61,451 nt of DNA from an uncultured Acetobacteraceae bacterium. Its GTDB lineage: Bacteria > Pseudomonadota > Alphaproteobacteria > Acetobacterales > Acetobacteraceae. The DNA lies in assembly GCA_903900905.1 (NCBI GenBank), contig CAIUPC010000584.1:1-61451 (forward strand), written 5' to 3'. Positions 1,709 through 44,156 of the stretch are shown here, in pieces. Each line of letters starts with the position of its first letter. Positions within the stretch are counted from its first letter, which is position 1. The position numbers were made by a program, and so were the translations under genes. The notes under the pieces are model-generated. The model searched no databases. It saw only the letters and a program-made list of their open reading frames with translations, and was not told the origin of the DNA.

Positions 1709-2025
1709 GTGCAGCCCGCCAGTGCGCCGTTGATAGCGCGTGCAACCGCCCGGCCTTCGTCGGTCGGCATGACCACCACAAGCCGCCGATCCTCGGGGTC
1801 CGTGGCGCGCTGCAACAGGCCGTGCAGCGACAGGCGATCCAGCGCGCGGGTCACGACCGGCTTTTGCACGGCGAGCGCCTTGGCGATTTCGCGCACGCCC
1901 AGCCGGGGCACCGTCGCATGGGGTCGTGAGCCGTACACCGCCTCCATGACAGCCAGTTGCCGCAGCGACAGATCAAGAGGCGCGATTTTCTCGTGGCGCA
2001 CCAGCGCACAGAACGGGGTTTTCAA
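1705..2025 (-). CDS. MarR-family winged-HTH transcriptional regulator
   Basis: TTG start overlapping the gcrA stop; LSLRQLAVM...GVREIAKALAVQKPVVTRALDRL...GLLQRATDPEDRR is a MarR signature. Confidence 0.8.
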   Translation of the reverse strand: MKTPFCALVRHEKIAPLDLSLRQLAVMEAVYGSRPHATVPRLGVREIAKALAVQKPVVTRALDRLSLHGLLQRATDPEDRRLVVVMPTDEGRAVARAINGALAGCT

Positions 2026-2546
2026 GCGAGATCTCCTTTGGATTGATTGTCGCGCATGTCGCGCACCGGCACGTAGGCAACGCGCATGTGATCCGGGCAG
2101 TACGGTCGCCCCGGCACGCCTGCGGCTTCGCAGAACCGAAACGCCGGGGTTCCGGGGTCGCCAAGCGGGAAACAGCAGGGCTGCGGCTTGACCGATTGGA
2201 ACACCACGGGCGGCGGTGGCGGCGGTTCGGGCGGTGCCTGGATCACCGGGCGCGTGGCGCGACGTGGCGCGGCGTAAGATGCGACCTGCGGTAGCGTGGC
2301 GCTGCCCTTGGGCACGCGCTGCACGGCGATCTTCTTGGGCGTTCCGGGTGGCGGGATGGGCGAAGGCCGAGGCGTCAGGCCGAGGCGATGCGCCTTGCCC
2401 ACCACGGCGCTCTTGCTGCACCCCAACGCGCGGCCGATGACTGAGCCTGAATGGCCTTCCTCCCACATCTCGCGCAATTTGGCCTCGTGCTTCGCCCAAT
2501 CGACCGTCTCGATGGCGTGCGTCCGCTTTGCGTTGAGCGCCATCAC
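2022..2546 (-). CDS. gcrA: GcrA-family cell-cycle regulator homologue
   Basis: N-terminal W...LREMWEEGHSGSVIGRALGCSKSAVVGKAHRLGL and C-terminal CCFPLGDP..FRFC...GRPYCPDH..AY. Confidence 0.88.
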   Translation of the reverse strand: MMALNAKRTHAIETVDWAKHEAKLREMWEEGHSGSVIGRALGCSKSAVVGKAHRLGLTPRPSPIPPPGTPKKIAVQRVPKGSATLPQVASYAAPRRATRPVIQAPPEPPPPPPVVFQSVKPQPCCFPLGDPGTPAFRFCEAAGVPGRPYCPDHMRVAYVPVRDMRDNQSKGDLA

Positions 2547-4261
2547 TCGTCTCCCTCGTTGTCCGCCTCGGGCACATCACCTTCCTCGTCCCACGCTGCG
2601 GCGCTTGCACGCGGCTTGAACGGCGGTGCGTCAAACAGTGCGGGCGCCGGTCGCCAGTCGGGCAGCTTGCCTTCCAGCGCCTTGCGCATGGCGGAAACCT
2701 GCACCGGCACGGCGATGTCGGCCTCGCGGGCGGCGCGCGTCAGTTCCTCGCCTTTCAGCACGCCCAGCATTTCCGCGTCGTCGAGGCGCGGCGGGTCGAT
2801 GTCCAGCAGCGCGCCCACCCAATCCGCCATCGGGCCGCTGCTGGTGAACACGCCGGGCCCCGGACAGACCAGCACGCGGGCGATCATCTGGCACGCGATG
2901 TCCGTCACGTTGTCAGGCACCATTACGCGCCCATCTGCGTTGAAAAACGCGGGCAGCAGGTCATCGAAGCGCCCGCTGTGACCGTTGGGGTGCGGTGCGC
3001 CCCGGATCGACACATTCCGCGCCGCCAGCGTCAGGCACAGCGCGGCCAGCAACGTGCTGGGCCGAGTGCCCGGCTGATGTTCCAGCCCGGCCCGCAGCAT
3101 CGCATCCTTGCGCGCGGCGATCAGGTCGAGTGCTTTCTTCGTGTAGGCGTTGGTCGGTTCGCCTTCGCCGGCGTCGGGTGCATCTGTCGCCTGCGCTGCG
3201 GGCTTTGCCTTGGCCGATTTCTCGGCCATCGGCAGCGCGTAGCGGCGCACGATTGCTCCCATGTTCCAGCCGCTATCCACCACGGCGGTCACGATCTTGC
3301 CGGGGTCGCCCTTCTTGAGCGGCTTGGTGATGTCGATGTTGGTATATGCGAGTTCCCACCCGGCAGGCGGCTGCAACTGGCCGTCTTTCATCGTGCCCAG
3401 CAGCGGGCGCTTGCTTGCGGCAAGACGCTGCACGTCCTCGCGCAGCGCGGCAGTCTGGCAGTGCAAGAATTTTTCGGTGTCGGTGGTGGTAAATTGCTCG
3501 TCCGAGCCGGGTTCCGCGAACAGGTCTTCCTCGAACGTCAGGCCCACGGTGGCCTGGGCGGTAGCAGCGTCAAAGATTGCCCGTTTGAGCGGAATGCGGG
3601 TGCGTCGGCACGCCTGTTCAATCTGCCACCAAAGCGGTTCGTTGGCATTGCTGCGTTCCGCCCAAACCGCCGCTTGCACGTCGAGTGGCGCGTTGGCGAT
3701 GGTTGCCAGCGTGGAGAGCTTGGGCATGTCGCGGGCTGGCAATGCTGCCATCGCGTCCAGCATTGCGGGCAGAATGCGGCCCAGCACGCTCATGCGCCTC
3801 AAGTGCGCCTCGCCCATGCCCAGCGCCATTGCTGCCGTCTCTGGCGCGCAACCCTGCGCCACCATGCGCTGCACGGCGCGCCACTGGTCCACCGGGTGCA
3901 TCGGTGCCCGGACCATGTTCTCGGCGGCCTGCGACAGCGACGCATCGCCCGCCCGTTCGGCGACCAGCACCGCCATGATGTCCGTCCAGCCCAGCGCGCG
4001 GGCCGCACGCACGCGGCGGTGGCCGAATACCACCTGATGCCGCCCGGTCAGCGCATCGGCGGGCCGCAGCCCCACCGGCTGCAACAGGCCCAGCATGGAC
4101 ATGCTGGCGCGTAGCCCGGCGTCGGCATCGCCATCGGCTGCCACCCGGCGCACGTTGCCGGGGTCGTCGTCGATCAGCACCAGCGGCACGGTCCATGCCG
4201 CGGCGGGCGGTGCCGATGCGAAAGACCCCGCATCGGCTTCGGCTTGTGTGATGGTCAGCAT
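2543..4261 (-). CDS. ParB/RepB/Spo0J-family protein (ParB CTPase N-domain plus HTH, long C-terminus)
   Basis: NVRR...LRASM..LGLLQPVGLR...VVFGHRRVRAA...ENMVR motifs; start MLTIT at 4261 overlaps the stop of the Tas-like gene. Confidence 0.85.
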   Translation of the reverse strand: MLTITQAEADAGSFASAPPAAAWTVPLVLIDDDPGNVRRVAADGDADAGLRASMSMLGLLQPVGLRPADALTGRHQVVFGHRRVRAARALGWTDIMAVLVAERAGDASLSQAAENMVRAPMHPVDQWRAVQRMVAQGCAPETAAMALGMGEAHLRRMSVLGRILPAMLDAMAALPARDMPKLSTLATIANAPLDVQAAVWAERSNANEPLWWQIEQACRRTRIPLKRAIFDAATAQATVGLTFEEDLFAEPGSDEQFTTTDTEKFLHCQTAALREDVQRLAASKRPLLGTMKDGQLQPPAGWELAYTNIDITKPLKKGDPGKIVTAVVDSGWNMGAIVRRYALPMAEKSAKAKPAAQATDAPDAGEGEPTNAYTKKALDLIAARKDAMLRAGLEHQPGTRPSTLLAALCLTLAARNVSIRGAPHPNGHSGRFDDLLPAFFNADGRVMVPDNVTDIACQMIARVLVCPGPGVFTSSGPMADWVGALLDIDPPRLDDAEMLGVLKGEELTRAAREADIAVPVQVSAMRKALEGKLPDWRPAPALFDAPPFKPRASAAAWDEEGDVPEADNEGDE

Positions 4262-5307
4262 TCGATTGATTCCCCTTCGGAGGTGTTGGCAGCGCACGCC
4301 TTCCATGCCCGCCATAGATGTTCGACAAGCGCCTTGGTCATGACGCGCCGCGCGTCAGCATCCCGGTGGCCCAGCGTCCAATCGCGGCCTTCGGTCGCAG
4401 CCTTTCGACGGGCATATATTTCGCCGTAGATGCTGATGGCATGGGCGGGCGCATCGTCTTTGGCGCCGCGCCATTGGTGGCGGAAGAAGCTGTCCGCAAC
4501 GGCCCAAATTTCCGCACGGCGGGCCGGGCTGTAGCCATGCTCTTTGGCCGCGTCCGCGCCGGACTTGCGCTGTTGGCGTTCACCGTTGATGACGGCGAGG
4601 CCGAGGCGCTTCCACAACTTTTCGACGGTGGCGTAGTTGGACAGGTCGCCTGCTTCACCGACGATGATCGCAACGCCCTTCGGGCCGAGGCCGCGCACGC
4701 CCGATGCCCACGCCCAGACGGGCAGCGACTTCGCCAGCACTTCCATGCGCTTTTCGGTTTGCGTGCGGTGCGCGTCCCACGATTGGCGGGCTTGCGCGGA
4801 CAGCAGAATTAGCGGGGCGGCATCGGCATGTTGCCCTTGTCTGTTGCCAGCATGATCCTCACGGCCGATGCCGCCCTTCTCCACCTCGCGGCGGATGCGT
4901 TGCGCTTCGGCGAATGCCGCCTTGCGCTGTTTTTCATCTTGCTCGGCGTTGAACCCCAGACCGCGCGCAATGAACGACTCAATGGATCGGTCGCACCGGC
5001 TTTGGGATTTGATGCAGAAGCGCCGCTGCGATTGCAGTTCGCGCATCTCGGCAATGATGGCGGCTAGGTCATGTGCATTGTGGCTCGAACGAGCAACTAG
5101 TCCGTGGACCTGACCGCCGGGGGGCATTTCTTGATTGGCCGCGCTCTGTGGCAGCATATCAACGGCCCCCGTCTCGGAATTGGTGGCGATGGAAGCACTC
5201 GCTGTGCGGCGCTTGCGCGCACCCCTTCCGTGGCCTCCATCGCCTTGGGGCATCGCTTCAATGGCCGGATTAACCGGCATTGGGTGCTCGGCCCCAATCT
5301 CAAACAT
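4255..5307 (-). CDS. TasA-like Nop/IS110-Tnp-domain RNA-binding protein without an N-terminal RuvC/HNH nuclease
   Basis: Coiled coil (MRELQSQRRFCIK...RTQTEKRMEVLAKSLP) then GVRGLGPKGVAIIVGEAGDLSNY.TVEKLWKRLGL...YGEIYARRK...HRDADARRVMTKALVEHLWRAW, typical of the IS110/Nop C-terminal fold. No DEDD domain. AAGGAG RBS before the ATG at 5307; alternative ATG at 5046. Adjacent to and containing guide-like units. Confidence 0.8.
   Translation of the reverse strand: MFEIGAEHPMPVNPAIEAMPQGDGGHGRGARKRRTASASIATNSETGAVDMLPQSAANQEMPPGGQVHGLVARSSHNAHDLAAIIAEMRELQSQRRFCIKSQSRCDRSIESFIARGLGFNAEQDEKQRKAAFAEAQRIRREVEKGGIGREDHAGNRQGQHADAAPLILLSAQARQSWDAHRTQTEKRMEVLAKSLPVWAWASGVRGLGPKGVAIIVGEAGDLSNYATVEKLWKRLGLAVINGERQQRKSGADAAKEHGYSPARRAEIWAVADSFFRHQWRGAKDDAPAHAISIYGEIYARRKAATEGRDWTLGHRDADARRVMTKALVEHLWRAWKACAANTSEGESIEC
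4815..4876 (-). ncRNA. TIGR-like stem-loop guide unit 8 (inside the Tas coding region)
   Basis: GGGCGGCATCGG-CCG-TGAGGATCA-TG-CTGGCAACAG-ACA-AGGGCAACA-TG-CCGATGCCGCCC; perfect 12-bp outer stem. Confidence 0.8.
5059..5297 (-). ncRNA. TIGR-like stem-loop array, units 4-7
   Basis: Four units at 5245-5297, 5185-5244, 5120-5170 and 5059-5118, each stem-CC(A/G)-N9-TG-hairpin(10 or 13 nt)-CC(A/G)-N9-TG-complementary stem. Confidence 0.9.
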
Positions 5308-6037
5308 CGCCGTTCTCCTTCGCCTGTTCGTACAGCCGCGCCGCTTCTTCGCCCGTGCGGTATGTTCGGATCGGTAGGTGCGGCGGCAGGTTCGCGGTCA
5401 GCAGGCGGACAAAACGAACGTCTCGTGCGTGGCTGTCCGCCCACGCATTCGCTTCCGCCGATGTCAGGTCGCCAATCGGCATTCCGTTCGCCTTGAACGT
5501 GTCCAGCAGCGACTTGGCAGCAACGGCACCAACGGCGGCCATGCCCGCAGTGCCTTTGGCAGCACCGCCCGGCAGCGCGCGGGAATGCGCCGTGACGGCT
5601 ACAGGTTTGACGGAGGGGGCATATGCACATTGGCCAGTGTCGGCAGCGTTTTGTTGGCCCCCTCCGTCGTCCGAGGCGTGCGGCATAGGCGTAGCGGCCT
5701 TGCCGGGCACCCGGTCATCGGCCGCACGCTCGGAATTTTGGGAAGGGGCAGCCTGCTTCTGGCCAGTATTGGCAGCCAGCCTCTGGCCCCTTCCCGCTTC
5801 CCGCTGCAACGTCGCCGCTGCCTCGGTCAGCAACCTATCCAGCGCAGTGTATCGGTAATGCTGAAACAACGCGCGCAGCAGCGCCGCATCGGTTTCCACC
5901 GCCGCCCACACCACGTTGGCCGCTTCTGTGCGCGCCGGGTGACGCGCCAGTGCGTCGATAGCAATCTGGCGTAGCGTGTCCACCGATGCTTTGTAGCCCG
6001 CTGCGATGAACGCCTCGCGCATCGTTGTGTCAGTCAT
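5300..6037 (-). CDS. Hypothetical protein whose central linker is encoded by guide units 1-3
   Basis: 245-aa ORF with protein-like N-terminal (helical) and C-terminal (SLLDTFKANGMPIGDLT) parts flanking the array; coupled to both neighbours. Confidence 0.7.
   Translation of the reverse strand: MTDTTMREAFIAAGYKASVDTLRQIAIDALARHPARTEAANVVWAAVETDAALLRALFQHYRYTALDRLLTEAAATLQREAGRGQRLAANTGQKQAAPSQNSERAADDRVPGKAATPMPHASDDGGGQQNAADTGQCAYAPSVKPVAVTAHSRALPGGAAKGTAGMAAVGAVAAKSLLDTFKANGMPIGDLTSAEANAWADSHARDVRFVRLLTANLPPHLPIRTYRTGEEAARLYEQAKENGDV
5609..5795 (-). ncRNA. TIGR-like stem-loop array, units 1-3
   Basis: Units at 5740-5795, 5676-5729 and 5609-5668, e.g. GGGAAGGGG-CCA-GAGGCTGGC-TG-CCAATACTGG-CCA-GAAGCAGGC-TG-CCCCTTCCC. 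Confidence 0.9.
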
Positions 6038-9247: not shown

Positions 9248-9979
9248 TTATTGGAAGCCCAGCGCCTCGGGCCACTCGATCACGCGCAATACTTCTGCGA
9301 CATCATCGCTCGGAAATTGCTCTGTAGCGTCGGGCCGGTATTGGCTCAGCGTCAGCGCCTCGGCGGTGCGGCCGACCAACAGCCTGAGAAGCCAGACGTT
9401 TGCCGACCGCAGCCGAACGATGACGTGACAGCCGGGCGCAGCTTGGCGGGCGGGCTGCACCATCACCAGCTCGCCGGGCCGCCGCCACGGGGCCATGCTG
9501 TCGTCCGTCGCATAAAAGGCGAACGCCGTCTGCGACCCGTCCAGCGCGGGCGGGCGCGCTGTGAACTGGCCGGTGGCCTGCGCGAGGCTCATCGAGAAAC
9601 CCCGCTGGGCCGGCGTGGCGTGATAGACCGGTAAATCCCGGACCAGGTGCAACGACGCGAACGAGACGGGCAATGCAGCAGATCGCACATTCGAGGCTCC
9701 GCCAAATGACGCGCTGACCAGACTGGTCATACTGTCACTAGCTGGCGCGCCTGCCAATGCCAAAACCTCGCGATCCTGAATAGGCGGATTGCCGCGCCCC
9801 ACCAGCGCCGGGAGAAGATCGCGGACGAACTTCATTGGCAGCCATGGTTGCTTATAGTTCGACCGCTCATAAGAATTGTAGGTCGAAAAAGGCACGTTCA
9901 TTGCATCCGCGATGCCACGGATTGACCAACCCGCCCGCTGTCGCAGCAACTTGAGTTGCGCGGAAACTGAATCTGTCAT
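9248..9979 (-). CDS. CI-like repressor (XRE HTH plus S24-like domain)
   Basis: LKLLRQRAGWSIRGIADAMNVPFSTYNSYE HTH; C-terminal AFAFYATDDSMAP..RPGELVMV; divergent from the cro-like gene. Confidence 0.85.
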   Translation of the reverse strand: MTDSVSAQLKLLRQRAGWSIRGIADAMNVPFSTYNSYERSNYKQPWLPMKFVRDLLPALVGRGNPPIQDREVLALAGAPASDSMTSLVSASFGGASNVRSAALPVSFASLHLVRDLPVYHATPAQRGFSMSLAQATGQFTARPPALDGSQTAFAFYATDDSMAPWRRPGELVMVQPARQAAPGCHVIVRLRSANVWLLRLLVGRTAEALTLSQYRPDATEQFPSDDVAEVLRVIEWPEALGFQ

Positions 9980-10017
9980 CGCTGCTTCGCCTACCTGACA
10001 CCGTGCGCTGAACATGT

Positions 10018-10088
10018 GCGAAATTTCCGCATTAAAGTAGTTGCCACATTTCGCTTGCCTTGACGTGCGAACGTCGCGTAAATTTCGC
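10018..10088. promoter_or_regulatory. Immunity switch region with two operators
   Basis: GCGAAATTTCCGC (10018-10030), GCGTAAATTTCGC (10076-10088) and TTGACG at 10060, between the divergent cI and cro genes. Confidence 0.55.
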
Positions 10089-10093
10089 ACACC

Positions 10094-26253: not shown

Positions 26254-26609
26254 AGCGGCGCGCAAAATACGCACGCGAAGGGCGGCCGGAGCATGTGCCC
26301 ACCGAGGCCAATCGCAAGTTGATCATGATCGCGATTGGCATGGGCGCGACGCAAGACGATGTGGCCGAAGAAATCGGCATCGCCAAGCACACGCTGGCGA
26401 AGCACTACCGCGAAGATTTGGACATGGCGACCGCGCGCTTTCAGACCAAGTTGCGCATCCGCGCTGGCGTGAAGGCGCTGGCAGGCGACCGGACCATGCA
26501 AATCTTCCTGCTGAAAACCAAATGCGGGTTCCGAGAAACGAGCGAGGTCGTCGGTGAGAACGGCGGCCCCGTCCAGATCATCATCAGCGGCGACGACGCC
26601 AAACTTTAG
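26250..26609 (+). CDS. Terminase small subunit
   Basis: GRPEHVPT...IGIAKHTLAKHYREDL...IFLLKTKCGFRET; directly upstream of TerL. Confidence 0.8.
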   Translation: MKRRAKYAREGRPEHVPTEANRKLIMIAIGMGATQDDVAEEIGIAKHTLAKHYREDLDMATARFQTKLRIRAGVKALAGDRTMQIFLLKTKCGFRETSEVVGENGGPVQIIISGDDAKL

Positions 26610-27891
26610 CCTCACGGATCGGCAGGTCGAGGCAAACCGCCTGCTGGGCAGCAACGCCACTCACATCATGCTGCGCGGCGGCAGCCGGTCGGGCAAGACG
26701 TTCCTGATCTGCCGGGCCATCGCCGTCCGCGCGCTGCGCAAGACCAGTTCGCACGCCATCCTCCGGTTCAAGCGCGACCATCTCAAGCAGTCGGTCGTGA
26801 TGGATACCTGGCCCAAGATGTGGCGCCTGTGCTTTCCGAATGCGGGCTACACGCTGAACAAGTCGGAACTGTCGATCACGGTTCACGGCACCGGCAGCCG
26901 CATCCTGTTCGGCGGGCTGGACGACGCGGAACGCACCGAGAAAATTCTTGGGCAAGAGCACTCGACGATGTATCTCAACGAGTGCTCGCAGATCAGCTAC
27001 GACGCGCGCAACAAGGCGGTCACTCGTCTGGCGCAAAAATCCGGCCTGCCGCTGCGGTTCTACTACGACTGCAACCCGCCCAGCGTCGGCCACTGGACCT
27101 ATCAACTGTTCGAGCGCGGCGTTGAACCACGCTCGCGCCGCCCGCTGATTGATCCGTCGAACTATGCGTCGATGATGCTCAACCCGCGCGACAACCTCGC
27201 CAATCTACCGGCCGAAGTGATCGCCGAGTTGCAGCAGTTGCCCGAGAAGGACCGGCTGCGGTTTCTGGAAGGGCAATATCTGGCGCAAGTCGATAATGCG
27301 CTGTGGACGTACGACCGCCTCGACGCCTGCCGCGTGGGGCGCGAGCAAGTGCCTGACCTCAAGCGCGTTGTGGTGGCCGTGGACCCGTCAGGGTGCAGCG
27401 GCCCCGAAGATCAGCGCAGCGACGAGATCGGCATCGTGGTGGCAGGCATCGACCGCGCCAATCGCGGCTACGTGCTGGAAGATGTCTCAGGCCGCTACTC
27501 GCCGGAAGGCTGGGCCAGTGTCGCATTGGCCGCGCTGGACCGGCACAAGGGCGACCGCATCATCTGCGAAAGCAACTTCGGCGGTGCGATGGTCGAGAAC
27601 ACCATTCGCGCCGTGCGCAAGTCGGCACCCGTCAAGCTGATCGCCGCCAGCCGCGGCAAGGTGCAGCGGGCCGAGCCGGTCGCGGCGCTGTATGAAACCA
27701 AGCAAGTCGCGCACGTCGAATCGTTCCCGGACCTCGAAGAACAACTCTGCAACTTCTCGACCGCTGGCTACCAAGGCCCGCGCTCGCCTGACCGGGCCGA
27801 CGCCGCAATCTGGGCGCTGACCGAATTGTGCATCGGCCTTGAGCCGCCGCCTGCCGCCCGCATCGCCCGCATCGCCATGCTGGGCCGCTAA
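26554..27891 (+). CDS. Terminase large subunit (start uncertain, see findings)
   Basis: Walker A GGSRSGKT, Walker B YLNE, CNP, nuclease VAVDP...DRADA. Confidence 0.92.
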   Translation: MRTAAPSRSSSAATTPNFSLTDRQVEANRLLGSNATHIMLRGGSRSGKTFLICRAIAVRALRKTSSHAILRFKRDHLKQSVVMDTWPKMWRLCFPNAGYTLNKSELSITVHGTGSRILFGGLDDAERTEKILGQEHSTMYLNECSQISYDARNKAVTRLAQKSGLPLRFYYDCNPPSVGHWTYQLFERGVEPRSRRPLIDPSNYASMMLNPRDNLANLPAEVIAELQQLPEKDRLRFLEGQYLAQVDNALWTYDRLDACRVGREQVPDLKRVVVAVDPSGCSGPEDQRSDEIGIVVAGIDRANRGYVLEDVSGRYSPEGWASVALAALDRHKGDRIICESNFGGAMVENTIRAVRKSAPVKLIAASRGKVQRAEPVAALYETKQVAHVESFPDLEEQLCNFSTAGYQGPRSPDRADAAIWALTELCIGLEPPPAARIARIAMLGR

Positions 27892-27991
27892 CCGCCGACC
27901 CGCCGCGAGACGCGGCATGACCAAAGCGCCGCGCGATGCGGATCACTGACCCTGCCAACATGGGCTGACCGCCCGCATCTGGAGAAACCCA

Positions 27992-29491
27992 ATGGCGTTC
28001 CAAAACCTCACCTCGGGGACGGTCTATCTCGCGCTGGGCACGGCGCTGTCCGCCACCGGCGTGTTCACCGAACTGACCGGCACCGGCTACGCGCGGCAGG
28101 CCATCACGGCGCAGTATGACGCCGTGGCAGGCGTGATCGTGTTCCCGGCTGGCGTCACCTTCACCGCCGGTGGCACATGGTCCGCCAGCAACTACGCGGC
28201 GATCTTCGACTCGCTGAATGGCGGCAGCCTGCTGATGGTATGGGCCGCCCCGGGCACGGCGCTCGCCAGCGGTGCCACGCTCGCCATCGCGGCGCAGGCG
28301 TACAACATCACGGTGAGCGCCAGCGTGATGGGGCCGAACAAGTCGGTCACGAACTTCACCGCCATCGGCAGCATCACCGGCACATCCATTCTGGCGCAAG
28401 GCGCGCTGGTCTATTCCGGCGTGCCGATTGGCATGAGCGCCACCGGCGTGCTGTCGCCCACTGCTTCCAGTTATTCGCCCCTGACGCAGCCCGCCGTGGT
28501 GTTCCGCGACGTGCTGGACGGCGGCGATATGACGGTCAACCCGTTCCAGCGCAACATCCCGGGCCTGGCCACCGCTGGCGTCGCAAGCGCCGTGGCGAGC
28601 AATACGCCGGTCTATTTCGCGGATCGCTGGTTCGCCGTGGGCGGCGCTTCGTCCTCGATCACGCAAGCGGTCGTCGCCAACACCAGCCTGACCGGCTTCA
28701 ACCAGACGCTGCAATGGGGTCGCACGGCCAGCAATGCCAACACCGCCCCAATTTTTCTCGGTCAGGTGATCGAACCCATCGACGTTGTGCGCCTGCAGGG
28801 CCAGTTGATGACGCTGAGCTTCTACGCGCTGGCGGGTGCCAACTTCTCGGGCGGCACGCTGACGGCATCGGTCGTGTCCGGCACCGGCAACGCCGCCAAT
28901 ACCACGGCGGCGAACCTTGCCACCGGCGCATGGACGGGTGCCACCACGCTGGCAACGTCGCCGTTCACGCTGACCACCACGGCGCAGCGCTTCCAGATGA
29001 CCGTGCCGCTGGTGCCGGCCAACGCGGTCCAGTTGGGCGTTCTGTTCAGCTACACGCCGAGCGGCACGGCGGGTGCCAGTGACAACGTGCAGTTCTTCGA
29101 CATCGACCTGAGCCTGGGCAGCCCGGCCAGCCCGGCCGAGCGCCGCGACATCCAGTTGGAACTCGAACTGGCGCAGCGCTTCTGCTGGGTCATCGCCGAG
29201 CCCGCCAACGGCGTGCTTGTGGCTCCGGGCACCACGACCGCCGCCAATACGCAAAGCTACTACCTCGCAACCCCGGTGCAGTTCCGCGCCGCTCCGACGC
29301 TGACTGTGGCCACCGGCAGCTTCAAGGTGGCGGCGGGCGCCGCAGCCGCCTTGGCGACAATCTCGGCTGGCGGCACGCACACCATCAACGCCATCAGCCT
29401 GACCAGCGCGGTCACGGCGGCGGCGGGCGTTGGCGCGTTGGTCGTCGGCGGCGGTGGCTCCGGCTACGTCATCGCCAGCGCGGACTACTAA
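27992..29491 (+). CDS. Virion fibre/decoration-like protein
   Basis: GYARQAI N-terminal domain; DGGDMTVNPFQR...ADRWF...TLSFYA...ELELAQRF as in phage fibre carbohydrate-binding-like domains. Confidence 0.55.
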   Translation: MAFQNLTSGTVYLALGTALSATGVFTELTGTGYARQAITAQYDAVAGVIVFPAGVTFTAGGTWSASNYAAIFDSLNGGSLLMVWAAPGTALASGATLAIAAQAYNITVSASVMGPNKSVTNFTAIGSITGTSILAQGALVYSGVPIGMSATGVLSPTASSYSPLTQPAVVFRDVLDGGDMTVNPFQRNIPGLATAGVASAVASNTPVYFADRWFAVGGASSSITQAVVANTSLTGFNQTLQWGRTASNANTAPIFLGQVIEPIDVVRLQGQLMTLSFYALAGANFSGGTLTASVVSGTGNAANTTAANLATGAWTGATTLATSPFTLTTTAQRFQMTVPLVPANAVQLGVLFSYTPSGTAGASDNVQFFDIDLSLGSPASPAERRDIQLELELAQRFCWVIAEPANGVLVAPGTTTAANTQSYYLATPVQFRAAPTLTVATGSFKVAAGAAAALATISAGGTHTINAISLTSAVTAAAGVGALVVGGGGSGYVIASADY

Positions 29492-29499
29492 GCCGCGCC

Positions 29500-30966
29500 A
29501 TGTTTGACACGCTGGCCGAGAAAGTCCCGCAGGACAAAGACTTGCCCGTGCGGGCTTGGCGGCTGGCGGTCATGCGGCGCGTGCTGCAAGGCACGCTCTA
29601 TGACGTGCTCAAGCAGCAATTCCACGACGAACGGAACGGCAGCGGCGAATATGTGCCGCTGCGCCAACGCAAGCCCTCGGTGCGGTACAACCTGTGCCGC
29701 ATCGTGGTGCGCGATACCGTCTCGATGCTGTTCGGTGACGGGCACTTCCCGGCCATCGAATGCGGCAACCCCGATCAGCGCACCCAACTGACCGCGCTGC
29801 TGGCCGATGCCAAATTGGCCTCGGTGATGTCGGACGCCGCCTATCGCGGATCGGTCGGGTCAATCGCCGTGCGAATGCGCGTGCTGGAAAGCCGGTTGTT
29901 CTTCGACGCGATGGACACCGACTACCTCACGCCGGCCTATAAGGCCGACGCACCCGACACGCTGGAAAAGGTGGTGGAGCGCTACAAGGTGCTCGGTCGC
30001 GAACTGGCAGCACGCGGCTACACCATCCCGGACGAACATCTCGACGCGGCATGGTGGTTCCAGCGCGAATGGACCGACAGCGCCGAAAACTGGTACATGC
30101 CGAAGCGCGTCAATGACGAGGACAAGACGCCGCCCGCGCTGGACGAGCAAAACACCGTGTACCACGGCCTCGGGTTCGTGCCGCTGGTCTGGATCAAGAA
30201 CATGCCGGGCGGCGACGGCATCGACGGCGAATGCACCTTCCGGCCCGCTGTCGAAACCAGCATCGAGATTGACTACCAGCTATCGCAGGCCGGGCGGGGG
30301 CTGAAATACTCGTCCGACCCGCTGCTGATGATCCGCGAACCTGCAGGGGCAGAAGGCGAGATGATTCGCAGCGCCGGTAATGCGCTGGTCGTCTCGGAAA
30401 AGGGCGATGCCAAATTGCTGGAAATCGACGGCACGGCTTCCAGCGCGGTCATCGAATACGTGCGCTTCCTGCGCGAAGTCGCGCTTGAGAGCATCCAAGG
30501 CAATCGCAGCAGCGCCGACAAGCTGGCCGCCGCACAATCCGGCCGCGCTTTGCAAATGCTGCACCAATCGCTGATCTGGCTGACCGACGACTTGCGCACC
30601 AGCTACGGCGACAATGGCGTGCTCAAACTGGCCCGCATGGTCGCTGCCGCCGCGCAGATATTCCCGCTGAAAACCGCAGACGGCGTCGCGCGCAAGATCG
30701 CGCCCAATTTGCCGATCTCGCTGCGCTGGCCCGCGTGGTTCCACCCGACCGAGTTGGACAAGCGGGAGCAGGCATCGACGCTCTCCGACTTGCGCGAATC
30801 CGGCCACATCAGCCGCCGCACGGCGGTCAGCGTGCTGGCCGACAGCTACGGCATCGACGCCGTGGACGACGAACTCGCCCGCATCATTGAGGACGAGGTT
30901 GCTGCCGACGCGCGCGACGCGGCGCGAGCCGCGCAGACCAAGGCCGTGGAAACACCGCCGGGCTAG
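29500..30966 (+). CDS. Portal protein
   Basis: 488 aa downstream of TerL; YNLCRIVV...LFG, HGLGFVPLVWIKN, SGRAL motifs of SPP1-like portals. Confidence 0.8.
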   Translation: MFDTLAEKVPQDKDLPVRAWRLAVMRRVLQGTLYDVLKQQFHDERNGSGEYVPLRQRKPSVRYNLCRIVVRDTVSMLFGDGHFPAIECGNPDQRTQLTALLADAKLASVMSDAAYRGSVGSIAVRMRVLESRLFFDAMDTDYLTPAYKADAPDTLEKVVERYKVLGRELAARGYTIPDEHLDAAWWFQREWTDSAENWYMPKRVNDEDKTPPALDEQNTVYHGLGFVPLVWIKNMPGGDGIDGECTFRPAVETSIEIDYQLSQAGRGLKYSSDPLLMIREPAGAEGEMIRSAGNALVVSEKGDAKLLEIDGTASSAVIEYVRFLREVALESIQGNRSSADKLAAAQSGRALQMLHQSLIWLTDDLRTSYGDNGVLKLARMVAAAAQIFPLKTADGVARKIAPNLPISLRWPAWFHPTELDKREQASTLSDLRESGHISRRTAVSVLADSYGIDAVDDELARIIEDEVAADARDAARAAQTKAVETPPG

Positions 30967-31034
30967 CCCGCGATGGGCACCGCCGCCGGGCGCATCCGGC
31001 ACACGGCCCGTGACGGGCACAATCAGGAGCCGAG

Positions 31035-31622
31035 ATGGCTGACGATCCCCCCCCCAACATCGACACGCTGACGGCGCAACTGGCTGCGGCGAGCGCCGAA
31101 CTGGCAAACGCCAAGGCGCGCATCAGCGAGTTGAACAACGAAGCCAAGGGCCACCGGCTCAACGGCGACAACCACAAGCGGGCAGCCGAGGAAGCCGCGG
31201 TCGCGCGTGACGCCGCGATTGCCGACAAGGCCGCGAAGTTGGCCGAACTGGAAGCCGCGAAGGCAGAAGCGATCAAGGCCGCTGAAACCAAAGCGGCCGA
31301 GGCGCTGAGCAAGGCCGAGCAGCGCGCGATCAATGCGGACTTGCGCATCGCCGCCAAGGACGCGGGCGCACACGACGCATCCGACATTCTGGCACTGCTG
31401 GACCGCAGCAAGGTCAAGACCAACGACGCGGGCGATGTGACCAACGCCGCCGATCTGATGGCCGAACTGAAAAAGGCCAAGCCGCATCTCTTCGGCGCGA
31501 CCAGCACCAGCAACCCGAAAGACCCGCCCAAGCCCAAGGATCCCGCCGCCAAGAAAGTCAGCGAGATGACCGACGCAGAATACGAAGCGTCGAAGCGGAA
31601 TCGGGCGTGGCGCAACAATTGA
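31035..31622 (+). CDS. Capsid scaffolding protein
   Basis: Ala/Lys/Glu coiled coil ending KKAKPHLFG; located between portal and capsid. Confidence 0.75.
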   Translation: MADDPPPNIDTLTAQLAAASAELANAKARISELNNEAKGHRLNGDNHKRAAEEAAVARDAAIADKAAKLAELEAAKAEAIKAAETKAAEALSKAEQRAINADLRIAAKDAGAHDASDILALLDRSKVKTNDAGDVTNAADLMAELKKAKPHLFGATSTSNPKDPPKPKDPAAKKVSEMTDAEYEASKRNRAWRNN

Positions 31623-31750
31623 TCTCCTCCGGTCGGCGCGTGCGCCGGGGAGACGACTGACCCAGCGCACGCCGCCGCCCTTTTGTCCCTTGGGCAAGGA
31701 CAACAACCGACGCCGCAAGGCGCGGGCACTCTTTGACATGGAGCCTCACG

Positions 31751-33178
31751 ATGGCACTCAACGACCTTCCCGCCGCACTTCAGTCGGTGATCCAGGCGGG
31801 CTATCTGGAACGCGAGTTCAAGAAGCCGCTGCAAGCGAAGCTGGGCTTCCGCATGGTGGCCGACCGCGAGCCGTTTGCCGCAGGCATTGGCGAGACGATC
31901 ACCAAGACCCGCACCGGCTTGCTGCCCGCCGTGACCGCGCCGATGGCCCCGGCCAGCGTGACGGATTTCACCAGCGGCCTGACGCCGCAGAACTATTCGA
32001 CCGAGCAGTACACGCTGGGCGTGGCGCAGTATCCCGGCGTGATGATGCTCAACATCGCCACCGCTCGCGTTGCCATCGACGATCTGTTCCTGCGCAATGC
32101 GTTTACGCTGGGCGAGCAGGCGGCCCGCTCGGTGGACACGCTGGCACAGCGCGCGCTGTTCGATCAGTACATGGGCGGCAACACCCGCGTCATCACCACG
32201 CTCGGCTCGCCCGCCACCACGCTGCGCGTCGATGACGTGCGCGGCTTCTTCAACACGCTGAACACGGCGGGTCAGCCGGTTGTGGTTTCGTCCTCGTTCA
32301 CGCTGGCCGTCCAGGTCGGCAGCAACATCTACACGCTGACCGGCGTGCAGGCGGACGGCGCGGCCCCGGCCTCGCTCAACCCGTGGATGGCGAACCTCGC
32401 GTTTTCGGGCAGCAACACCAACATCAGCACCGCGCCGGGCGGCTATTCCGGCGTGCTGACCTTCAGCAGCAACGTCAGCGTGGCGGACGGCACCGCTGGC
32501 AACGCCGTGGTGGCGGGCACCGCGCCTGCCATCTTCCGGCCGATCATCGGCACATCGTTCAGCACCGGCACGCAATGCGCCACCACGGCTGCCATCTCCG
32601 CCGCTGCCGACTACAACGCCGGTCGCCTCGGGATGCAGCAAATCCTGACCGCCAAGGCCACGTTGAGCGCCAACGGCGTGCCGCCCGTCGATGCCACCGG
32701 CAACTATCACCTGTACGCCGACCCCATCCACCTGACCGGCCTCTACGCCGATCCGCAGTTCCAGTTGTTCTTCCGCGGCAAGCCCGACACGTCCGAGTAC
32801 AAGCGCGGTGTCGTATCCGAACTGCTGGGCGTGACGATCATCGAAACCAACCTCAACCCCGTGCAGGCGCTGGCCGGCGTGGGCACCGTGCGCCGCGCCG
32901 CGCTGTGCGGCCAGGGCGCGCTGGTCGAAGCGGAGTTCACCCGCACCGGCTATGCCGAGGCCAGCAAGGTGGACGATGCGGACGGCATGATGGTCGTGGT
33001 CGATGGCATCGCGCACATCACACGCGAGCCCATCGACGCGCTCAAGCAGGTTGTCACGCAGGCGTGGTCCTACATCGGCGGCTTCGTCGCGCCCACCGAT
33101 GCGACCACCAACCCGAACACCGTGCCCACCGCCAGCAACGCCGCGCTCAAGCGCGCTGCGATCCTCGAAAGCCTGTGA
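31751..33178 (+). CDS. Major capsid protein
   Basis: GGAG RBS, MALNDLPAALQSVIQAGYLEREF...GETITKTR; follows the scaffold gene. Confidence 0.8.
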   Translation: MALNDLPAALQSVIQAGYLEREFKKPLQAKLGFRMVADREPFAAGIGETITKTRTGLLPAVTAPMAPASVTDFTSGLTPQNYSTEQYTLGVAQYPGVMMLNIATARVAIDDLFLRNAFTLGEQAARSVDTLAQRALFDQYMGGNTRVITTLGSPATTLRVDDVRGFFNTLNTAGQPVVVSSSFTLAVQVGSNIYTLTGVQADGAAPASLNPWMANLAFSGSNTNISTAPGGYSGVLTFSSNVSVADGTAGNAVVAGTAPAIFRPIIGTSFSTGTQCATTAAISAAADYNAGRLGMQQILTAKATLSANGVPPVDATGNYHLYADPIHLTGLYADPQFQLFFRGKPDTSEYKRGVVSELLGVTIIETNLNPVQALAGVGTVRRAALCGQGALVEAEFTRTGYAEASKVDDADGMMVVVDGIAHITREPIDALKQVVTQAWSYIGGFVAPTDATTNPNTVPTASNAALKRAAILESL

Positions 33179-33381
33179 ACCCTCGTCCGAAGCTGGTGGC
33201 GGCGCACTCCGCGCCGTCACCAGTGGCGTTGCCTGCCCGCGTGCGCGTGCAGCACCGCTACGGCTACATCGACGAAGAAACCGGCCGCTCGCGCATGTGG
33301 GAGGCCGGTGATATGATCGTCGATGCCGGGGAAATTGCGCTGCTGGTCGGTCGCGGCGCACCGCTTGACGTGATCGAGTAG
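33175..33381 (+). CDS. Small head-associated protein
   Basis: GTGA overlap; YGYIDEETGRSRMWEAGD. Confidence 0.55.
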   Translation: MNPRPKLVAAHSAPSPVALPARVRVQHRYGYIDEETGRSRMWEAGDMIVDAGEIALLVGRGAPLDVIE

Positions 33382-33388
33382 CGCCGCC

Positions 33389-33784
33389 GTGGCCTTCACC
33401 GCCTACACCTTCACCGACACGCAACTGACCGACATCCGCCGCTTCTGCGGCTTCGGCATGTATGGTGACGGGTCAGTTGTGGGCGGCGCGCCGTGGATGA
33501 TGACCTACTATCTGGCGCTGGAATACAAGCTCCAGCACATGAGCACCGCCGAAGGCGCGGTCGTCGTCGCCCGGCTGGCTGACCTGAACACGCTGGAAGC
33601 GGCGATCCCGGCTGCAAGCAGCACGCTCAACGTGGCGCAAGCCGGGCCGTTCACGCGCAACGCGAACGAAATCCGCGACCGGATGGCGCTGTTCAACACA
33701 TGGCGGCGCGAGTTGTGCGCCTTCCTGATGATTCAACCCGGGCCGGGCTTGCCTGCCGCCGGTGGCATCAAGCTGGTGGTCTGA
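33389..33784 (+). CDS. Head-tail adaptor
   Basis: DIRRFCGF...RRELCAFL..PGPGL; position after the capsid gene. Confidence 0.6.
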   Translation: MAFTAYTFTDTQLTDIRRFCGFGMYGDGSVVGGAPWMMTYYLALEYKLQHMSTAEGAVVVARLADLNTLEAAIPAASSTLNVAQAGPFTRNANEIRDRMALFNTWRRELCAFLMIQPGPGLPAAGGIKLVV

Positions 33785-34452
33785 TGACCGGCACCACCAT
33801 CGCGCCGGTTTTTCAGATTGCGCCGCGCACCGTGGCCGCCGTGCTGGGCTTGCCGATGGCGCAATACCGGCCATCCAGCGCGGGGGCGGTGATCGCGGGC
33901 GGCAACTTGCTGCGCACGCTGCCGGTCTGGATCACAGGCGACAAAAAGGGCATGGGCACCACGCCGTTCGACTATGAGCAGCCGGTTGCCTATGCGAGCG
34001 TCGATCCGGCGTTGACCTCCATCGGTGATTATCTGGTGGGCGCGATCTGGCCGGGCGGCACCAGCCAGACTTTCTTCATCTCGTCGATGGACTTGCCCGC
34101 GCCGATTCAGGTTGTGAACTGCAACCGCGTGCTGACCTTTTCCCGGCCAAGCGGACAGAACCCCGGGCCCTCGTACTACGGCGGCGACATAGCAGCGACG
34201 GAAACGCCGCTGTTGACCGCGTGGCCCGCCGCCGTGGCGGCCAAGGGCAAGCGGCAATCCGGCGAAGTGCGCCTGCCGGGCGACATGGATTTGCCGTGGT
34301 ATGAGATCCTGCTGCCGCCTTCGGTGCCGGTGCAACTGCTGTCGATGGATGTCGTGATGGACGATCAGGCCATCCCGGTGCGCTACGTGGTGAGCGAGAC
34401 GGAACAGACGACGCTGGGCTGGCGATTGTCGGCACGCGCGGCGGTGCCCTGA
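33784..34452 (+). CDS. Head closure/neck protein
   Basis: Position and beta-rich composition; TGATG coupling. Confidence 0.5.
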   Translation: MTGTTIAPVFQIAPRTVAAVLGLPMAQYRPSSAGAVIAGGNLLRTLPVWITGDKKGMGTTPFDYEQPVAYASVDPALTSIGDYLVGAIWPGGTSQTFFISSMDLPAPIQVVNCNRVLTFSRPSGQNPGPSYYGGDIAATETPLLTAWPAAVAAKGKRQSGEVRLPGDMDLPWYEILLPPSVPVQLLSMDVVMDDQAIPVRYVVSETEQTTLGWRLSARAAVP

Positions 34453-35477
34453 TGGCCGATCTGGCAGATGTCGAGAATGCGCTTGTGGCGGTGATCGCCA
34501 ACGCGCTGTTCGCGCAGAACCTTGTGACCGAGGGCGGCACGCTGATCGTCACGGAAGGCGGCGTGAGCCTGACGACGGAAGGCGGGGGCGGCACCGGCTA
34601 TCTGCCGGGCGCTTACACCACCAGCGGCGTGTACTGGGCGTGGCCGCCGATTGTCTCCGGGGCGCCCGGCACACCGGCTGCGGGCACCATCAAGCTGTAT
34701 CGCGGCTGGCCGGAAAGCGCGAACCTGATGACGGATCTGGCCGCAGGCCGGGCACATGTCAGCGTGTTCCCGGAAAGCGGCATGGCGCGCAATACCACCC
34801 GGTACGCCCCGGCTTGGGGTGCCACGACTGCGGTTGCCTCGACGCTGGCCGCCGTCGTCAGCGACCTGACCATCACATTCAGCGGCACGCCCGCCGTGGG
34901 CCAAACCATCGGCGTGCAGACCGGCAATCCGCTGACCGGTGTGGGTGCGCCGGGTTTCGGCACTGCGGCCTATGCCTACGCCGTGCAGGCGGGCGACACG
35001 CTGACCATCATCGCTGCGGCTGTGGCCGCGCTGATCGCGGGCGCTTCGGCCAGCGGGGGCGTGGTGACGATGCCGACGCGGCTCACCGTGGTGAACATCG
35101 GCATGGCGCAGACCGCCGCGCTGATCTCGCGCCAACAGCAACAGACATTTCGCGTTTCATGTTGGGCGCCGTCGCCTGCAGCCCGTGATGCTGTGGCGCA
35201 GGCGGTCGATCAGGCGCTCGCCGCCATCGAACTCGCCGGGCGCTTCACCACGCCTGACAATTCATCCTGCCGCCTCATGTTCGCCGGCGTGTTCGTGGAC
35301 GACAGGCCGAGCAAAGACCGCGTGTGGCGGCGGGACATGCGCTACTCGGTGGAATATCCGACGCTGATGATCCAAACGCAGGCCGAGATGTCGGCTGGCA
35401 TTCTGAACCTGACGCCAAGCGGGCCGACTGCGGCCACCAGCCCGGCGTATCCGCCCGCAATCCTGCTGCCCTACTAG
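34452..35477 (+). CDS. Tail completion/terminator protein
   Basis: MADLADVENAL...YRGWP...RRDMRYSVEYPT; upstream of the sheath. Confidence 0.55.
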   Translation: MADLADVENALVAVIANALFAQNLVTEGGTLIVTEGGVSLTTEGGGGTGYLPGAYTTSGVYWAWPPIVSGAPGTPAAGTIKLYRGWPESANLMTDLAAGRAHVSVFPESGMARNTTRYAPAWGATTAVASTLAAVVSDLTITFSGTPAVGQTIGVQTGNPLTGVGAPGFGTAAYAYAVQAGDTLTIIAAAVAALIAGASASGGVVTMPTRLTVVNIGMAQTAALISRQQQQTFRVSCWAPSPAARDAVAQAVDQALAAIELAGRFTTPDNSSCRLMFAGVFVDDRPSKDRVWRRDMRYSVEYPTLMIQTQAEMSAGILNLTPSGPTAATSPAYPPAILLPY

Positions 35478-35486
35478 GAGCCGTTC

Positions 35487-35648
35487 ATGGCAACTCATCT
35501 CGTGGTCAGCGAGCCGTTTGGCTCGCGCCAGCGTGGCGACACGATCACCGACCCCGCCGAAGTGGCGGCGCTGCTGGCCGCTCCCGAATCGGTGTTCGTG
35601 CGCCGGGTGGAAGCGCCCGACGCGCCGCCCGAGCAGCCCGCGCAGTAA
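35487..35648 (+). CDS. Small virion-module protein (53 aa, below the ORF-track cut-off)
   Basis: AGGAG RBS; MATHLVVSEPFGSRQRGDTITDPAEV... Confidence 0.55.
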   Translation: MATHLVVSEPFGSRQRGDTITDPAEVAALLAAPESVFVRRVEAPDAPPEQPAQ

Positions 35649-35681
35649 TCCCGCCCCACCTGACCGCCCGGAGACACCAGC

Positions 35682-37262
35682 ATGAGCATCGTCCAACAGG
35701 GCGCGCTGAACACCACCGCCCTTGTGGTGCCCGATCTGTATGTGCAGATCGTGGCCCCGCAAAACCTCGTGCTGAACGGCGTGCCCACGAACATTCTGGG
35801 CGTCGTCGGCTCCGCGCAATGGGGGCCGGTCGGCCAGCCGGTCATCGTGTCCAGCATGGCGGACTATGCGCGCAACTTCGGCGCGATCCAGAACCGCACC
35901 TATGACATGGGCACGCAGGTTGCCACCGCCGTCATGCAGGGTGCCAGCAACTTCCGCTGTGTGCGTGCCACGGACGGCACCGATGCGGCAGCAACGAGCT
36001 TGGTGCTGACCAACTGCATCACCTTCACAGCGGCCTATACCGGCACGCTGGGCAACAGCCTGACCGCCACCATCACCAACGGCACGAAGGCCAGCAGCTA
36101 CAAGTTGGTTCTCGGCCTGCCGGGCCAGGTGCCCGAGGTGTACGACAACCTGACCGGCGCTGGTAACGCGCTGTGGGTGGCAATGGCCGCCGCCGTGAAC
36201 GCCGGTAGCGGCGCGCTGCGCGGCCCGTCGCTGCTCTGCACCGCTGCGGCGGGCGCGGGCGTCACAGCACCGACCGGCATCCTCAACACCGCGCAGGCGT
36301 TCAGCGGTGGCAGCGATGGCGTGACCTCGATGACCGCTGCTGTCTGCATTGGCGTGGACACGATCCCGCGCAAGGGCATGTATGCGCTGCGCGGGCAGGG
36401 CTGCACCATCGGCCTCATCTGCACGGCGGATGACTCCTACGCCAACAACTATGCGACGTGGACCACGCAGGCGACCTTCGGGCTGTCCGAAGGCATCTAC
36501 ATGATCACATGCGGGCCGAGCGGCGACAGCATTGCCACCGCCGTTGCCAACAAGGCCACCGCCGCGCTGGACAGCTACGCGGTCAAGCTGATGTTCGGCG
36601 ATTGGTGCTATTGGTCCGATCCGGTCAACGCCCTGATGCGTCTGGTCAGCCCGCAAGGCTTCGTGGCCGGGCGGCTGGCGAACCTGTCGCCGCAGAACTC
36701 GTCGCTCAACAAGCCGATTTATGGCATCGTGGACACGCAGAAATCCGGCCTGAACCCGGCGCAGAACACCGCCTATTCGACGGCGGAATTGACCACGCTG
36801 TTTCAAGCGGGCATCGACGTGATCTCCACCCCGCAGCCGGGCGGCTCGTACTACGGCTGCCGCCTCGGGCACAATTCCAGCAGCAATGCGGCGATCAACG
36901 GCGACAACTACACGCGCATGACCAACTACGTGGCCGCCACGATCAATGCGGGCATGGGCCTGTATGTCGGCCAGGTCATCAACTCGACGCTGTTCCAGCG
37001 CATCCGCAGCACGCTGCTGGGCTTTTTCCAGAACTTGTTTCAGCAGGGCTTGCTCGGCTCGCTGGATGGCACGTCGCTGCCGTTCTCGGTGGTCTGCGAC
37101 ACCAGCAACAACCCGTTCAGCCGCACGTCGCTCGGCTACGTGCAGGCCGACTGCCAAGTGCAGTATCAGGCCATCAACGAGAAGTTCCTCGTGAACATCG
37201 AGGGCGGCCAGACGGTCAACGTGCTGAAGCAGACGACCAGCAGCGGCCAGACCACGGCCTAA
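35682..37262 (+). CDS. Contractile tail sheath protein
   Basis: VPDLYVQI...GVVGSAQWGPVGQP...SPQGFVAG...SSLNKP...VVCDTSNN. Confidence 0.88.
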   Translation: MSIVQQGALNTTALVVPDLYVQIVAPQNLVLNGVPTNILGVVGSAQWGPVGQPVIVSSMADYARNFGAIQNRTYDMGTQVATAVMQGASNFRCVRATDGTDAAATSLVLTNCITFTAAYTGTLGNSLTATITNGTKASSYKLVLGLPGQVPEVYDNLTGAGNALWVAMAAAVNAGSGALRGPSLLCTAAAGAGVTAPTGILNTAQAFSGGSDGVTSMTAAVCIGVDTIPRKGMYALRGQGCTIGLICTADDSYANNYATWTTQATFGLSEGIYMITCGPSGDSIATAVANKATAALDSYAVKLMFGDWCYWSDPVNALMRLVSPQGFVAGRLANLSPQNSSLNKPIYGIVDTQKSGLNPAQNTAYSTAELTTLFQAGIDVISTPQPGGSYYGCRLGHNSSSNAAINGDNYTRMTNYVAATINAGMGLYVGQVINSTLFQRIRSTLLGFFQNLFQQGLLGSLDGTSLPFSVVCDTSNNPFSRTSLGYVQADCQVQYQAINEKFLVNIEGGQTVNVLKQTTSSGQTTA

Positions 37263-37292
37263 ACCTGACCCCTCACGCCCGGAGTTCTGCCA

Positions 37293-38741: not shown

Positions 38742-38797
38742 TTCGGTGCTGTGGCTACTGTCGGCGCTGTTCCGCGTTCGCTGACCGAGTGCGCGGC

Positions 38798-39211: not shown

Positions 39212-39285
39212 CTCCGTTTCGCGCGCGACGCTAGACGCGCTCACCGCCGGAAAGCAACGACGATCAGCACCGCAGGACGGCCCCG

Positions 39286-44153: not shown

Positions 44154-44156
44154 CGC

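Follow-up and report, generated by a model that had tools for sequence, protein, structure and literature searches.

Stem-loop TIGR-TasA systems combine a Nop-only Tas protein with guides in which box C and box D surround two 9-nucleotide (nt) spacers, closed by stems, as in PlTasA, BlTasA and MbTasA. Such guides have been described inside the tas reading frame, with an extended loop that contains a hairpin (Faure et al., 2025, PMC12045711; Guan et al., 2026, 10.64898/2026.08.11.744272; Xu et al., 10.64898/2026.09.09.750476), and TIGR-TasA sites are 18 base pairs (bp) long with abutting halves. Spacers A and B are reported to show no obvious covariation and overlap is considered unlikely; the oligonucleotide table of the same paper lists a substrate with a 1-bp overlap (Faure et al., 2025). 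A CUU motif at the stem base has been described, binding and repression have been shown for MbTasA, and natural TasA targets are said to be not yet determinable (Xu et al., 10.64898/2026.09.09.750476). No description of overlap in TIGR systems or of natural TasA targets was found in the portions of the literature that our search covered. The locus studied here lies on a contig of 61,451 nt from an uncultured Acetobacteraceae bacterium (assembly GCA_903900905.1, contig CAIUPC010000584.1, positions 1 to 61,451 of the forward strand), and this whole stretch is called the window. Judged by their sequence, eight hairpins in its tasA operon are stem-loop TIGR guides, a published kind, carried by a temperate phage. 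The locus shares with the systems above the Nop-only protein, the boxes, spacers and stems, the position inside the tas frame and the hairpin in the loop, and relatives with the Tas motif of the window appear in Table S1 of Faure et al. (2025). Relative to these accounts, its clade differs in a covariation between the ninth bases of the two spacers (A9 and B9), a signal for 17-bp sites, and candidate natural targets.

[quoted passage not shown] They run on the minus strand from 5795 to 4815, in frame inside tasA and a 245-amino-acid (aa) gene upstream of it. Each has a box C (CCA or CCG), a 9-nt spacer A, a loop of 15 or 18 nt, a 9-nt spacer B, a box D (TG) and a closing stem. Unit U1 (5740..5795) has spacer A at 5783-5775, a 15-nt loop, spacer B at 5759-5751, C:C at A9:B9 and a fold z of -2.8. 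In U2 (5677..5728; A 5718-5710, B 5694-5686; G:A) the predicted fold deviates from the unit fold (z -1.9), and U3 (5609..5668; A 5654-5646, B 5630-5622; C:A) has a z of -5.9. Next come U4 (5245..5297; A 5288-5280, 18-nt loop, B 5261-5253; A:A; z -3.6), U5 (5189..5240; A 5230-5222, B 5206-5198; G:G; z -2.0) and U6 (5120..5170; A 5162-5154, 18-nt loop, B 5135-5127; C:A; z -2.6). U7 (5067..5111; A 5104-5096, B 5080-5072) has a short stem and a z of -0.8, and with U:A it is the only guide whose ninth bases pair. U8 (4815..4876; A 4861-4853, B 4837-4829; A:A; z -5.3) lies in the structured part of tasA, and its second box C is degenerate (ACA). Predicted RNA folds contain the unit-type stem in seven of the eight guides. 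The loops are multiples of three with an inner hairpin, whereas 256 of 284 guides of the clade have 9-nt loops; in almost every unit that lies in coding sequence, the first base of spacer A is the second or third of its codon. The eight 18-mers that the initial annotation had built from spacer A and the reverse complement of spacer B are correct letter for letter. This half-site order is the right one, and only A9 and B9 are coupled.

Tas proteins are characterized by a coiled coil and a Nop domain, and both were found in TasA through the profile match to 9MTY and through Foldseek. The gene (4255..5307, minus strand) encodes a 350-aa Nop-domain Tas protein without nuclease, as assessed by profile, AlphaFold2 and Foldseek. 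The only match of its profile in the PDB was TasR (9MTY; E 1.1e-5), Foldseek ranks 1-10 were all TasR or TasH, and 952 homologues were found. The AlphaFold2 model has a pLDDT of 78, with residues 1-74 below 50 and the folded part starting at 77. Guides U4-U7 encode the disordered residues 1-75, and U8 falls in the low-confidence stretch near residue 150. No RuvC, HNH or other nuclease family was detected in TasA with Pfam and PHROGs, and its N terminus is a disordered, guide-encoded linker; since residues 1-74 are unstructured, TasA lacks a nuclease. The earlier view of this protein as a nuclease-less binder of a TIGR-type dual-spacer system thus agrees with its TasR/TasH fold, its disordered N terminus and the 9MTY profile match.

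The 245-aa gene (5300..6037, minus strand) overlaps the start of tasA and is a possible dedicated TIGR partner. Its C-terminal part was detected in 52 fetched loci, and in 51 of these, which are partly redundant, it lies directly upstream of tas. The modelled protein has two folded parts joined by a linker, and the linker encodes guides U1-U3. No Pfam, PDB or fold match was found for the gene as a whole, the C-terminal part alone not having been searched. A conserved upstream gene that holds guides, three of them here, was not found in the parts of the TIGR literature examined. This gene is also a candidate target of a guide from a relative (locus L141), at its LDTFK codons.

To the 159 loci with Tas relatives that were fetched, one more was added, and loci are labelled L with a number. 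A unit finder that required 9-nt spacers, a stem of at least 3 and a loop of 9-21 nt, in increments of three, detected 383 units near tas genes versus 3 in 1.42 Mb elsewhere in the relatives. It recovered seven of the eight window guides, and U7 was added by hand. The first guide set numbered 295 after identical guides were removed and 284 after those alike at 14/18 were dropped; a second scan with a different alignment gave 285 new guides from 35 loci, for a pooled set of 569. Among the 81 position pairs in the 284 guides, A9 x B9 was the strongest (z 11.8, and 7.9 within loci), the next being A7 x B1 (z 3.4-4.0). Watson-Crick and G-U pairs at A9:B9 occur in 158 of the first 284 guides and 356 of the pooled 569. 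The coupling was replicated in the 285 new guides, where 198 pair versus 118.5 expected globally and 127.6 within loci (0/2000 permutations), and other spacer positions gave 96-127. In the 22 closest loci, the window left out, 48 of 87 guides pair versus 33.1. U-U is nearly absent (1 versus 15.5 expected); together with this deficit, Watson-Crick and G-U pairing accounts for the A9 x B9 table. Dinucleotide bias does not, and an origin of the junction as natural contiguous DNA was rejected; palindromic targets were also rejected, no excess being seen. Where guides of related phages are near-identical (L013/L141, L048/L143, L138/L139 and L135), most of their differences fall at positions 1-3 of spacer B, at the outer edge of the site, which is consistent with less strict pairing at that end.

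Half-site spacing was compared by joining A1-8, d bases (0-4) and the reverse complement of B1-8, with re-paired halves as the control; d=1 corresponds to 17 bp and d=2 to 18 bp. The covariation had suggested d=1, and the cluster statistic was chosen after others were weak, so the new guides are the fair test. On 1.75 Mb, 13 of the first guides had 14/16 matches at homologous positions in at least two loci at d=1, versus 5.6 in controls (0/100), and 3 guides did so at d=2. For the new guides the corresponding counts were 15 versus 8.4 (1/25) at d=1 and 8 at d=2; with three or more loci they were 5 versus 1.1 (0/25) and 1. The pooled comparison used 569 guides on 2.50 Mb near tas genes with 100 permutations. 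At d=1, 82 guides had matches of at least 15/16 versus 60.9 (0/100), compared with 67 at d=2. Guides with homologous sites in two or more loci numbered 30 versus 15.2 (0/100) at d=1 and 12 at d=2, and guides with such sites in three or more loci 9 versus 2.6 (0/100) and 1. Some clusters must be chance, as about half of the count is expected. Of 24 evaluable clusters at d=1, six differ from the guide by silent changes only, so that the encoded peptide is unchanged (control 0.9, maximum 3), and 19 of the 24 are antisense (control about 7/12.6).

The translated d=1 cluster matches lie in open frames of tas, the partner gene, RecT, YqaJ and an N6/N4 methylase. The methylase gene of two other phages (L020/L096) is matched by two independent guides, that of L114 at 16/16 and that of L116 at 15/16 and 14/16. 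The L416 guide matches the tas gene of L414 at 16/16, the L422 guide matches PAKLWKR codons of tas in 11 loci, the L431 and L412 guides have matches in YqaJ and RecT genes, and the L141 guide has its match in the partner gene. At four such sites, the copies in the guide-bearing phages carry 2-4 mismatches. Own-locus targeting gave no 15/16 match among the first 284 guides; among 539 guides, matches of at least 14/16 numbered 21 versus 12.6 within loci, a weak rise, and d=4 was raised too under a looser control.

A separate explanation of the coupling is that A9 and B9 pair with each other inside the guide RNA, over the two-fold axis, and take no part in reading DNA; the site would then be 8 + 8 bp with free spacing. 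The inclusion of G-U and the near absence of U-U are as in an RNA pair, and d=0 is mildly raised. Clustered and same-peptide matches, however, point to d=1 rather than d=0, A9 is identical to the centre base in 32 of the 82 best d=1 matches (about 20 by chance), and A8 x B8 has no neighbour signal. We regard pairing within the RNA as highly unlikely.

Several results weigh against a 17-bp rule in the clade or limit its reach. The d=1 excess is small, about 15-20 of 569 guides, and exact 16/16 matches number 3 versus 1.6. Distal phage DNA, more than 10 kb from tas (1.40 Mb), gave no excess at any spacing with old or new guides; this fits early-gene targets, though it was not predicted. Other spacings rose in some columns, with pooled counts of 76 versus 60.3 (2/100) at d=0 and 23 versus 14.5 (4/100) at d=4, and 42 versus 31.6 (0/25) at d=0 for the new guides; because of these rises at d=0 and d=4, the re-paired control may be somewhat lenient. 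Sense matches at d=2 numbered 11 versus 5.7 (2/60), and the first guide set, matched to the operon database, lacked the antisense bias. The tas-rich database favours tas clusters, a bias common to the control, and related loci are not independent. A crude peptide 5-mer comparison showed nothing at 17 bp and 33 versus 22.8 at 18 bp. That comparison was rejected, as it was swamped by low-complexity words and poor gene calls.

The window array departs from its clade, and this also counts against extending the rule to it. One of its eight guides pairs at A9:B9 (p 0.005 at the 63% mean rate), and B9 is A in six of the eight. Loci are over-dispersed in this pairing (chi2 66.7, 42 df). The structure of PlTasA, itself a stem-loop TasA, has 9 + 9 bp (Guan et al., 2026, 10.64898/2026.08.11.744272), in line with the structural data of Faure et al. 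(2025, PMC12045711). The eight guides might therefore read 18-bp sites with abutting halves, as TaTasR and PlTasA do, in phages or plasmids outside the collections searched; with loops of 15-18 nt where most of the clade has 9, the lineage may differ. Among other long-loop guides, however, 21 of 30 pair, as do all three units detected in the closest relative (L110), and clustered matches show no 18-bp excess. The exact matches of the L114 and L416 guides occur with unpaired A9:B9, and A9 matches the centre. Because of L110, the long-loop guides and these unpaired exact matches, 17 bp is kept as the best guess for the eight guides, a length carried over from their kin.

Direct searches for 18-bp sites bear on the same question. 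The initial annotation had seen no perfect match in the window by eye. Outside the tas region, the 61-kb phage matches the 18-mers at 12-15/18 at best in either order; with gaps of -1 to 2, no guide reached 16/18 on the phage contig in either order. In the bin that contains the phage contig (5.59 Mb in 922 contigs, of which it is the longest), no gap-free match of A and reverse-complement B reached 16/18 for any guide. With both orders and gaps of -1 to 2, the bin gave no 18/18 match and one 17/18 match with a 1-nt gap (U1, G+C-rich). Exact 18-mer scans of IMG/VR covered U3, U6 and U8 (three of the eight guides), plasmids not being searched, and returned 4 contigs for U3 (2 distinct sites), 7 for U6 and 5 for U8 (3 distinct). 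These matches lie in DNA of 30-59% G+C, nearly all inside open frames, and none of the contigs is related to the bin beyond one 28-nt match. With 16 fixed bases, U6 has about 280 IMG/VR matches, from which about 17 would be expected for 18 bases, and 7 were seen. The 18-mer matches of the three guides look like chance, the control being this U6 count and not a shuffled scan. The U3 18-mer with at most 1 mismatch occurs in 1 of 201 related genomes, a distant one of 1.1 Mb, and the U6 18-mer with at most 2 mismatches in 2 of 77 genus genomes, at 5 sites (control 0). Four two-mismatch matches of the U6 18-mer lie in one genus genome, G219 (L181-L184; control 0). For neither guide did a relative offer a convincing site.

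The 295 clade guides gave 133 two-mismatch and 5 one-mismatch 18-bp matches in the bin, versus 112-156 and 4-7 when re-paired. Against the fetched loci, gap-free matches of at least 17/18 numbered 0 versus 1.2 and those of at least 16/18 numbered 42 versus 33.2; in the same test a 1-bp overlap gave 6 versus 2.0. The initial annotation had suggested a search with gaps of 0-2 but not with an overlap, and lack of an enrichment of adjacent half-sites over shuffled controls was to count against it. Clustered matches gave no such enrichment, and the 18-bp length found no excess at its spacing, whereas the 1-bp overlap does show one. With the IMG/VR matches lying in unrelated DNA, we consider 18-bp sites unlikely for these guides, though not negligibly so.

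At 17 bp, no target for any of the eight guides was established in the phage, the bin or the phage collections searched, a result that does not favour the preferred reading of 17-bp sites in related phages. The best self match in the phage was 13/16. Related phages gave single 15/16 matches for U4 (L003) and U6 (L411), at chance level, U7 had 0 exact 17-mers in IMG/VR, and U4 had no exact 17-bp site in the 77 genus genomes. The U6 match in L411, near 4254, is the best candidate, though at chance level. It is 15/16, or 16/17 when A9 is counted, and a U-G wobble would form at its mismatch. The match lies a few bases past the start codon in a small gene that is located 4 kb upstream of the L411 tas. 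The U4 site (L003:4273, 15/16) is in a close relative, near a tail gene. The 16-fixed-base IMG/VR matches of U6 were rejected as targets for their low G+C (1/120 at 55% or more).

Another explanation is that the guides silence host genes, for defence or metabolism, at 17-bp sites during infection or lysogeny. The bin has four 15/16 matches of the eight guides at d=1 versus 0.9 per eight re-paired guides (other spacings 0, 0 and 1), a small signal in favour of host targets, and MbTasA and CsTasR can repress a chromosomal gene according to Xu et al. (10.64898/2026.09.09.750476). Against this, the four sites lie inside unrelated coding genes, none is exact, and none is in a promoter or a defence gene. 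From their translations, we take these genes to encode a urea ABC binding protein, an Ile-tRNA ligase, a CoA-transferase subunit and an FkbH-like protein. U4 lacks an exact site in the genus genomes, and the bin may differ from the host of the phage. Host-gene silencing seems to us quite unlikely. The spacers may instead be old and drifted, the hairpins persisting as in-frame linker DNA without a present target. That no target was found, that A9:B9 pairing has been lost, that the U7 stem is short and the U8 box degenerate, and that close relatives differ by point changes in spacers would all fit. Boxes and stems are intact in all eight units, however, tasA is whole, and the rivals of the phage were thinly sampled (0.38 Mb of close prophages). 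Drift is a slim prospect.

The spacer G+C content of 76/144 (53%) given by the initial annotation was confirmed, against 65.9% in the window (binomial p 0.0008), and only 2.1% of 144-nt phage stretches are as low. Positions 1, 2 and 9 have 20/48 G+C, compared with 56/96 at positions 3-8 (p 0.07). Across 62 clade loci with at least 3 guides, mean G+C was 0.485 at the ends, 0.596 in the core and 0.626 in the locus, and spacers were below their own locus in 54 of the 62. Low spacer G+C is best taken as a feature of the spacer ends and a poor clue to targets; the A+T-richness once taken as such a clue is mainly a deficit at the ends, general across the clade. U3 and U6 had been called promoter-like. 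Of the eight guides, U6 alone matches the -35 hexamer at 5/6 positions (one guide versus 0.73 in shuffles), and the U3 matches are 4/6 and 3/6. Among 569 clade guides, -35 matches were at chance (49 versus 48.8) and -10 matches below it (17 versus 27.1), so predicted sites show no excess of sigma-70 hexamers in either set.

The preferred reading is that each guide steers a nuclease-free TasA dimer to a 17-bp early-gene site of a related phage and blocks its transcription, a proposal that we hold to be evenly balanced. The operon transcript would be cut into separate hairpin guide RNAs. A TasA dimer would open the 17-bp site; spacers A and B would pair with opposite strands, and both would reach the same central base pair. 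The bound complex would block RNA polymerase and so repress the gene, by analogy with MbTasA, and its victims would be early genes, those of the TIGR operon among them, in kindred phages that share the host. Silencing of rival phages, and not of host promoters, is the likely purpose of the guides. Of the silencing role first proposed, clade-level matches favour the part that concerns competing phages; promoters gain no hexamer excess, the translated cluster matches lie in open frames, and host defence genes had no match. A fuller version is tentative, with somewhat less in its favour than against it. It holds that this is a phage-against-phage system with its own rule, a shared central base pair in a 17-bp site. 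Guides would be drawn from kindred early operons, above all tas and the partner gene, so that TIGR systems silence one another, and in arrays with an unpaired A at B9 spacer A alone would read the centre. As a targeting variant of the clade, the covariation is well supported, the sites moderately so, and the part played by these eight guides is unproven.

The window, with a CI-like repressor (9248-10090), terminase, portal, head, tail sheath and baseplate genes (26554-45655) and an integrase (56285-57508) in the PHROG annotation, is a temperate contractile-tailed phage. A CCG-rich repeat is common to both contig ends (1-60 and 61363-61451), and for this reason it probably represents an entire circular phage genome that was opened at the repeat. 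An Acetobacteraceae host is likely because most of the named prophages whose Tas is closest belong to this family. The leftward early run, which contains the 245-aa gene, tasA and a ParB-like gene, is headed by the repressor (9248..10090, minus strand; helix-turn-helix and Peptidase_S24 in Pfam, phrog_4). The ParB-like gene (2543..4315, minus strand; Pfam ParB_N E 2.2e-7, PHROG ParB-like) is directly downstream of tasA, followed by a GcrA-like cell-cycle regulator (2022-2546, minus strand; Pfam E 1.4e-22). A scan of the whole window found no further good unit. The sole weak candidate, a solitary match at 44916 on the minus strand with a 5-bp stem, a degenerate box C and a best self match of 13/16, is probably chance. 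Sequencing run X2 of the same study spans U3-U8, with no difference listed, and run X1 may be the source of the contig.

Some mobile elements, namely viral mini-CRISPR arrays and type IV and V-M systems, aim guides at related elements without cutting. Unlike these, the window has an unrelated protein and guide, and no adaptation module was seen in it; type IV and V-M are named in the discussion of Faure et al. (2025, PMC12045711). In that paper, tasParB-tasA operons also place a ParB-like gene beside tasA, and they carry dual-repeat arrays where the window carries stem-loop units. IS110/IS621 is distant fold kin of the TasA C-terminal domain (Foldseek E 0.03; Pfam Transposase_20 E 0.055, weak) and likewise has two-part guides reading both strands. 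Unlike IS110/IS621, TasA has no RuvC-like (DEDD) N-terminal domain and is a single copy in a phage early operon, and its guides form an array of short hairpins, not one bridge RNA.

The natural targets of TIGR guides and the role of nuclease-free TasA are named as open in both main papers. For the eight guides of the window, the outcome is a corrected reading with a few candidate sites rather than a target. Guide-site pairs that can be tested include L114 or L116 on the methylase gene and L416 on the tas gene of L414. The 17-bp rule would matter for programming these small repressors, and the corrected target rule, if true, would explain the failure of 18-mer searches in this branch of TIGR-TasA systems.

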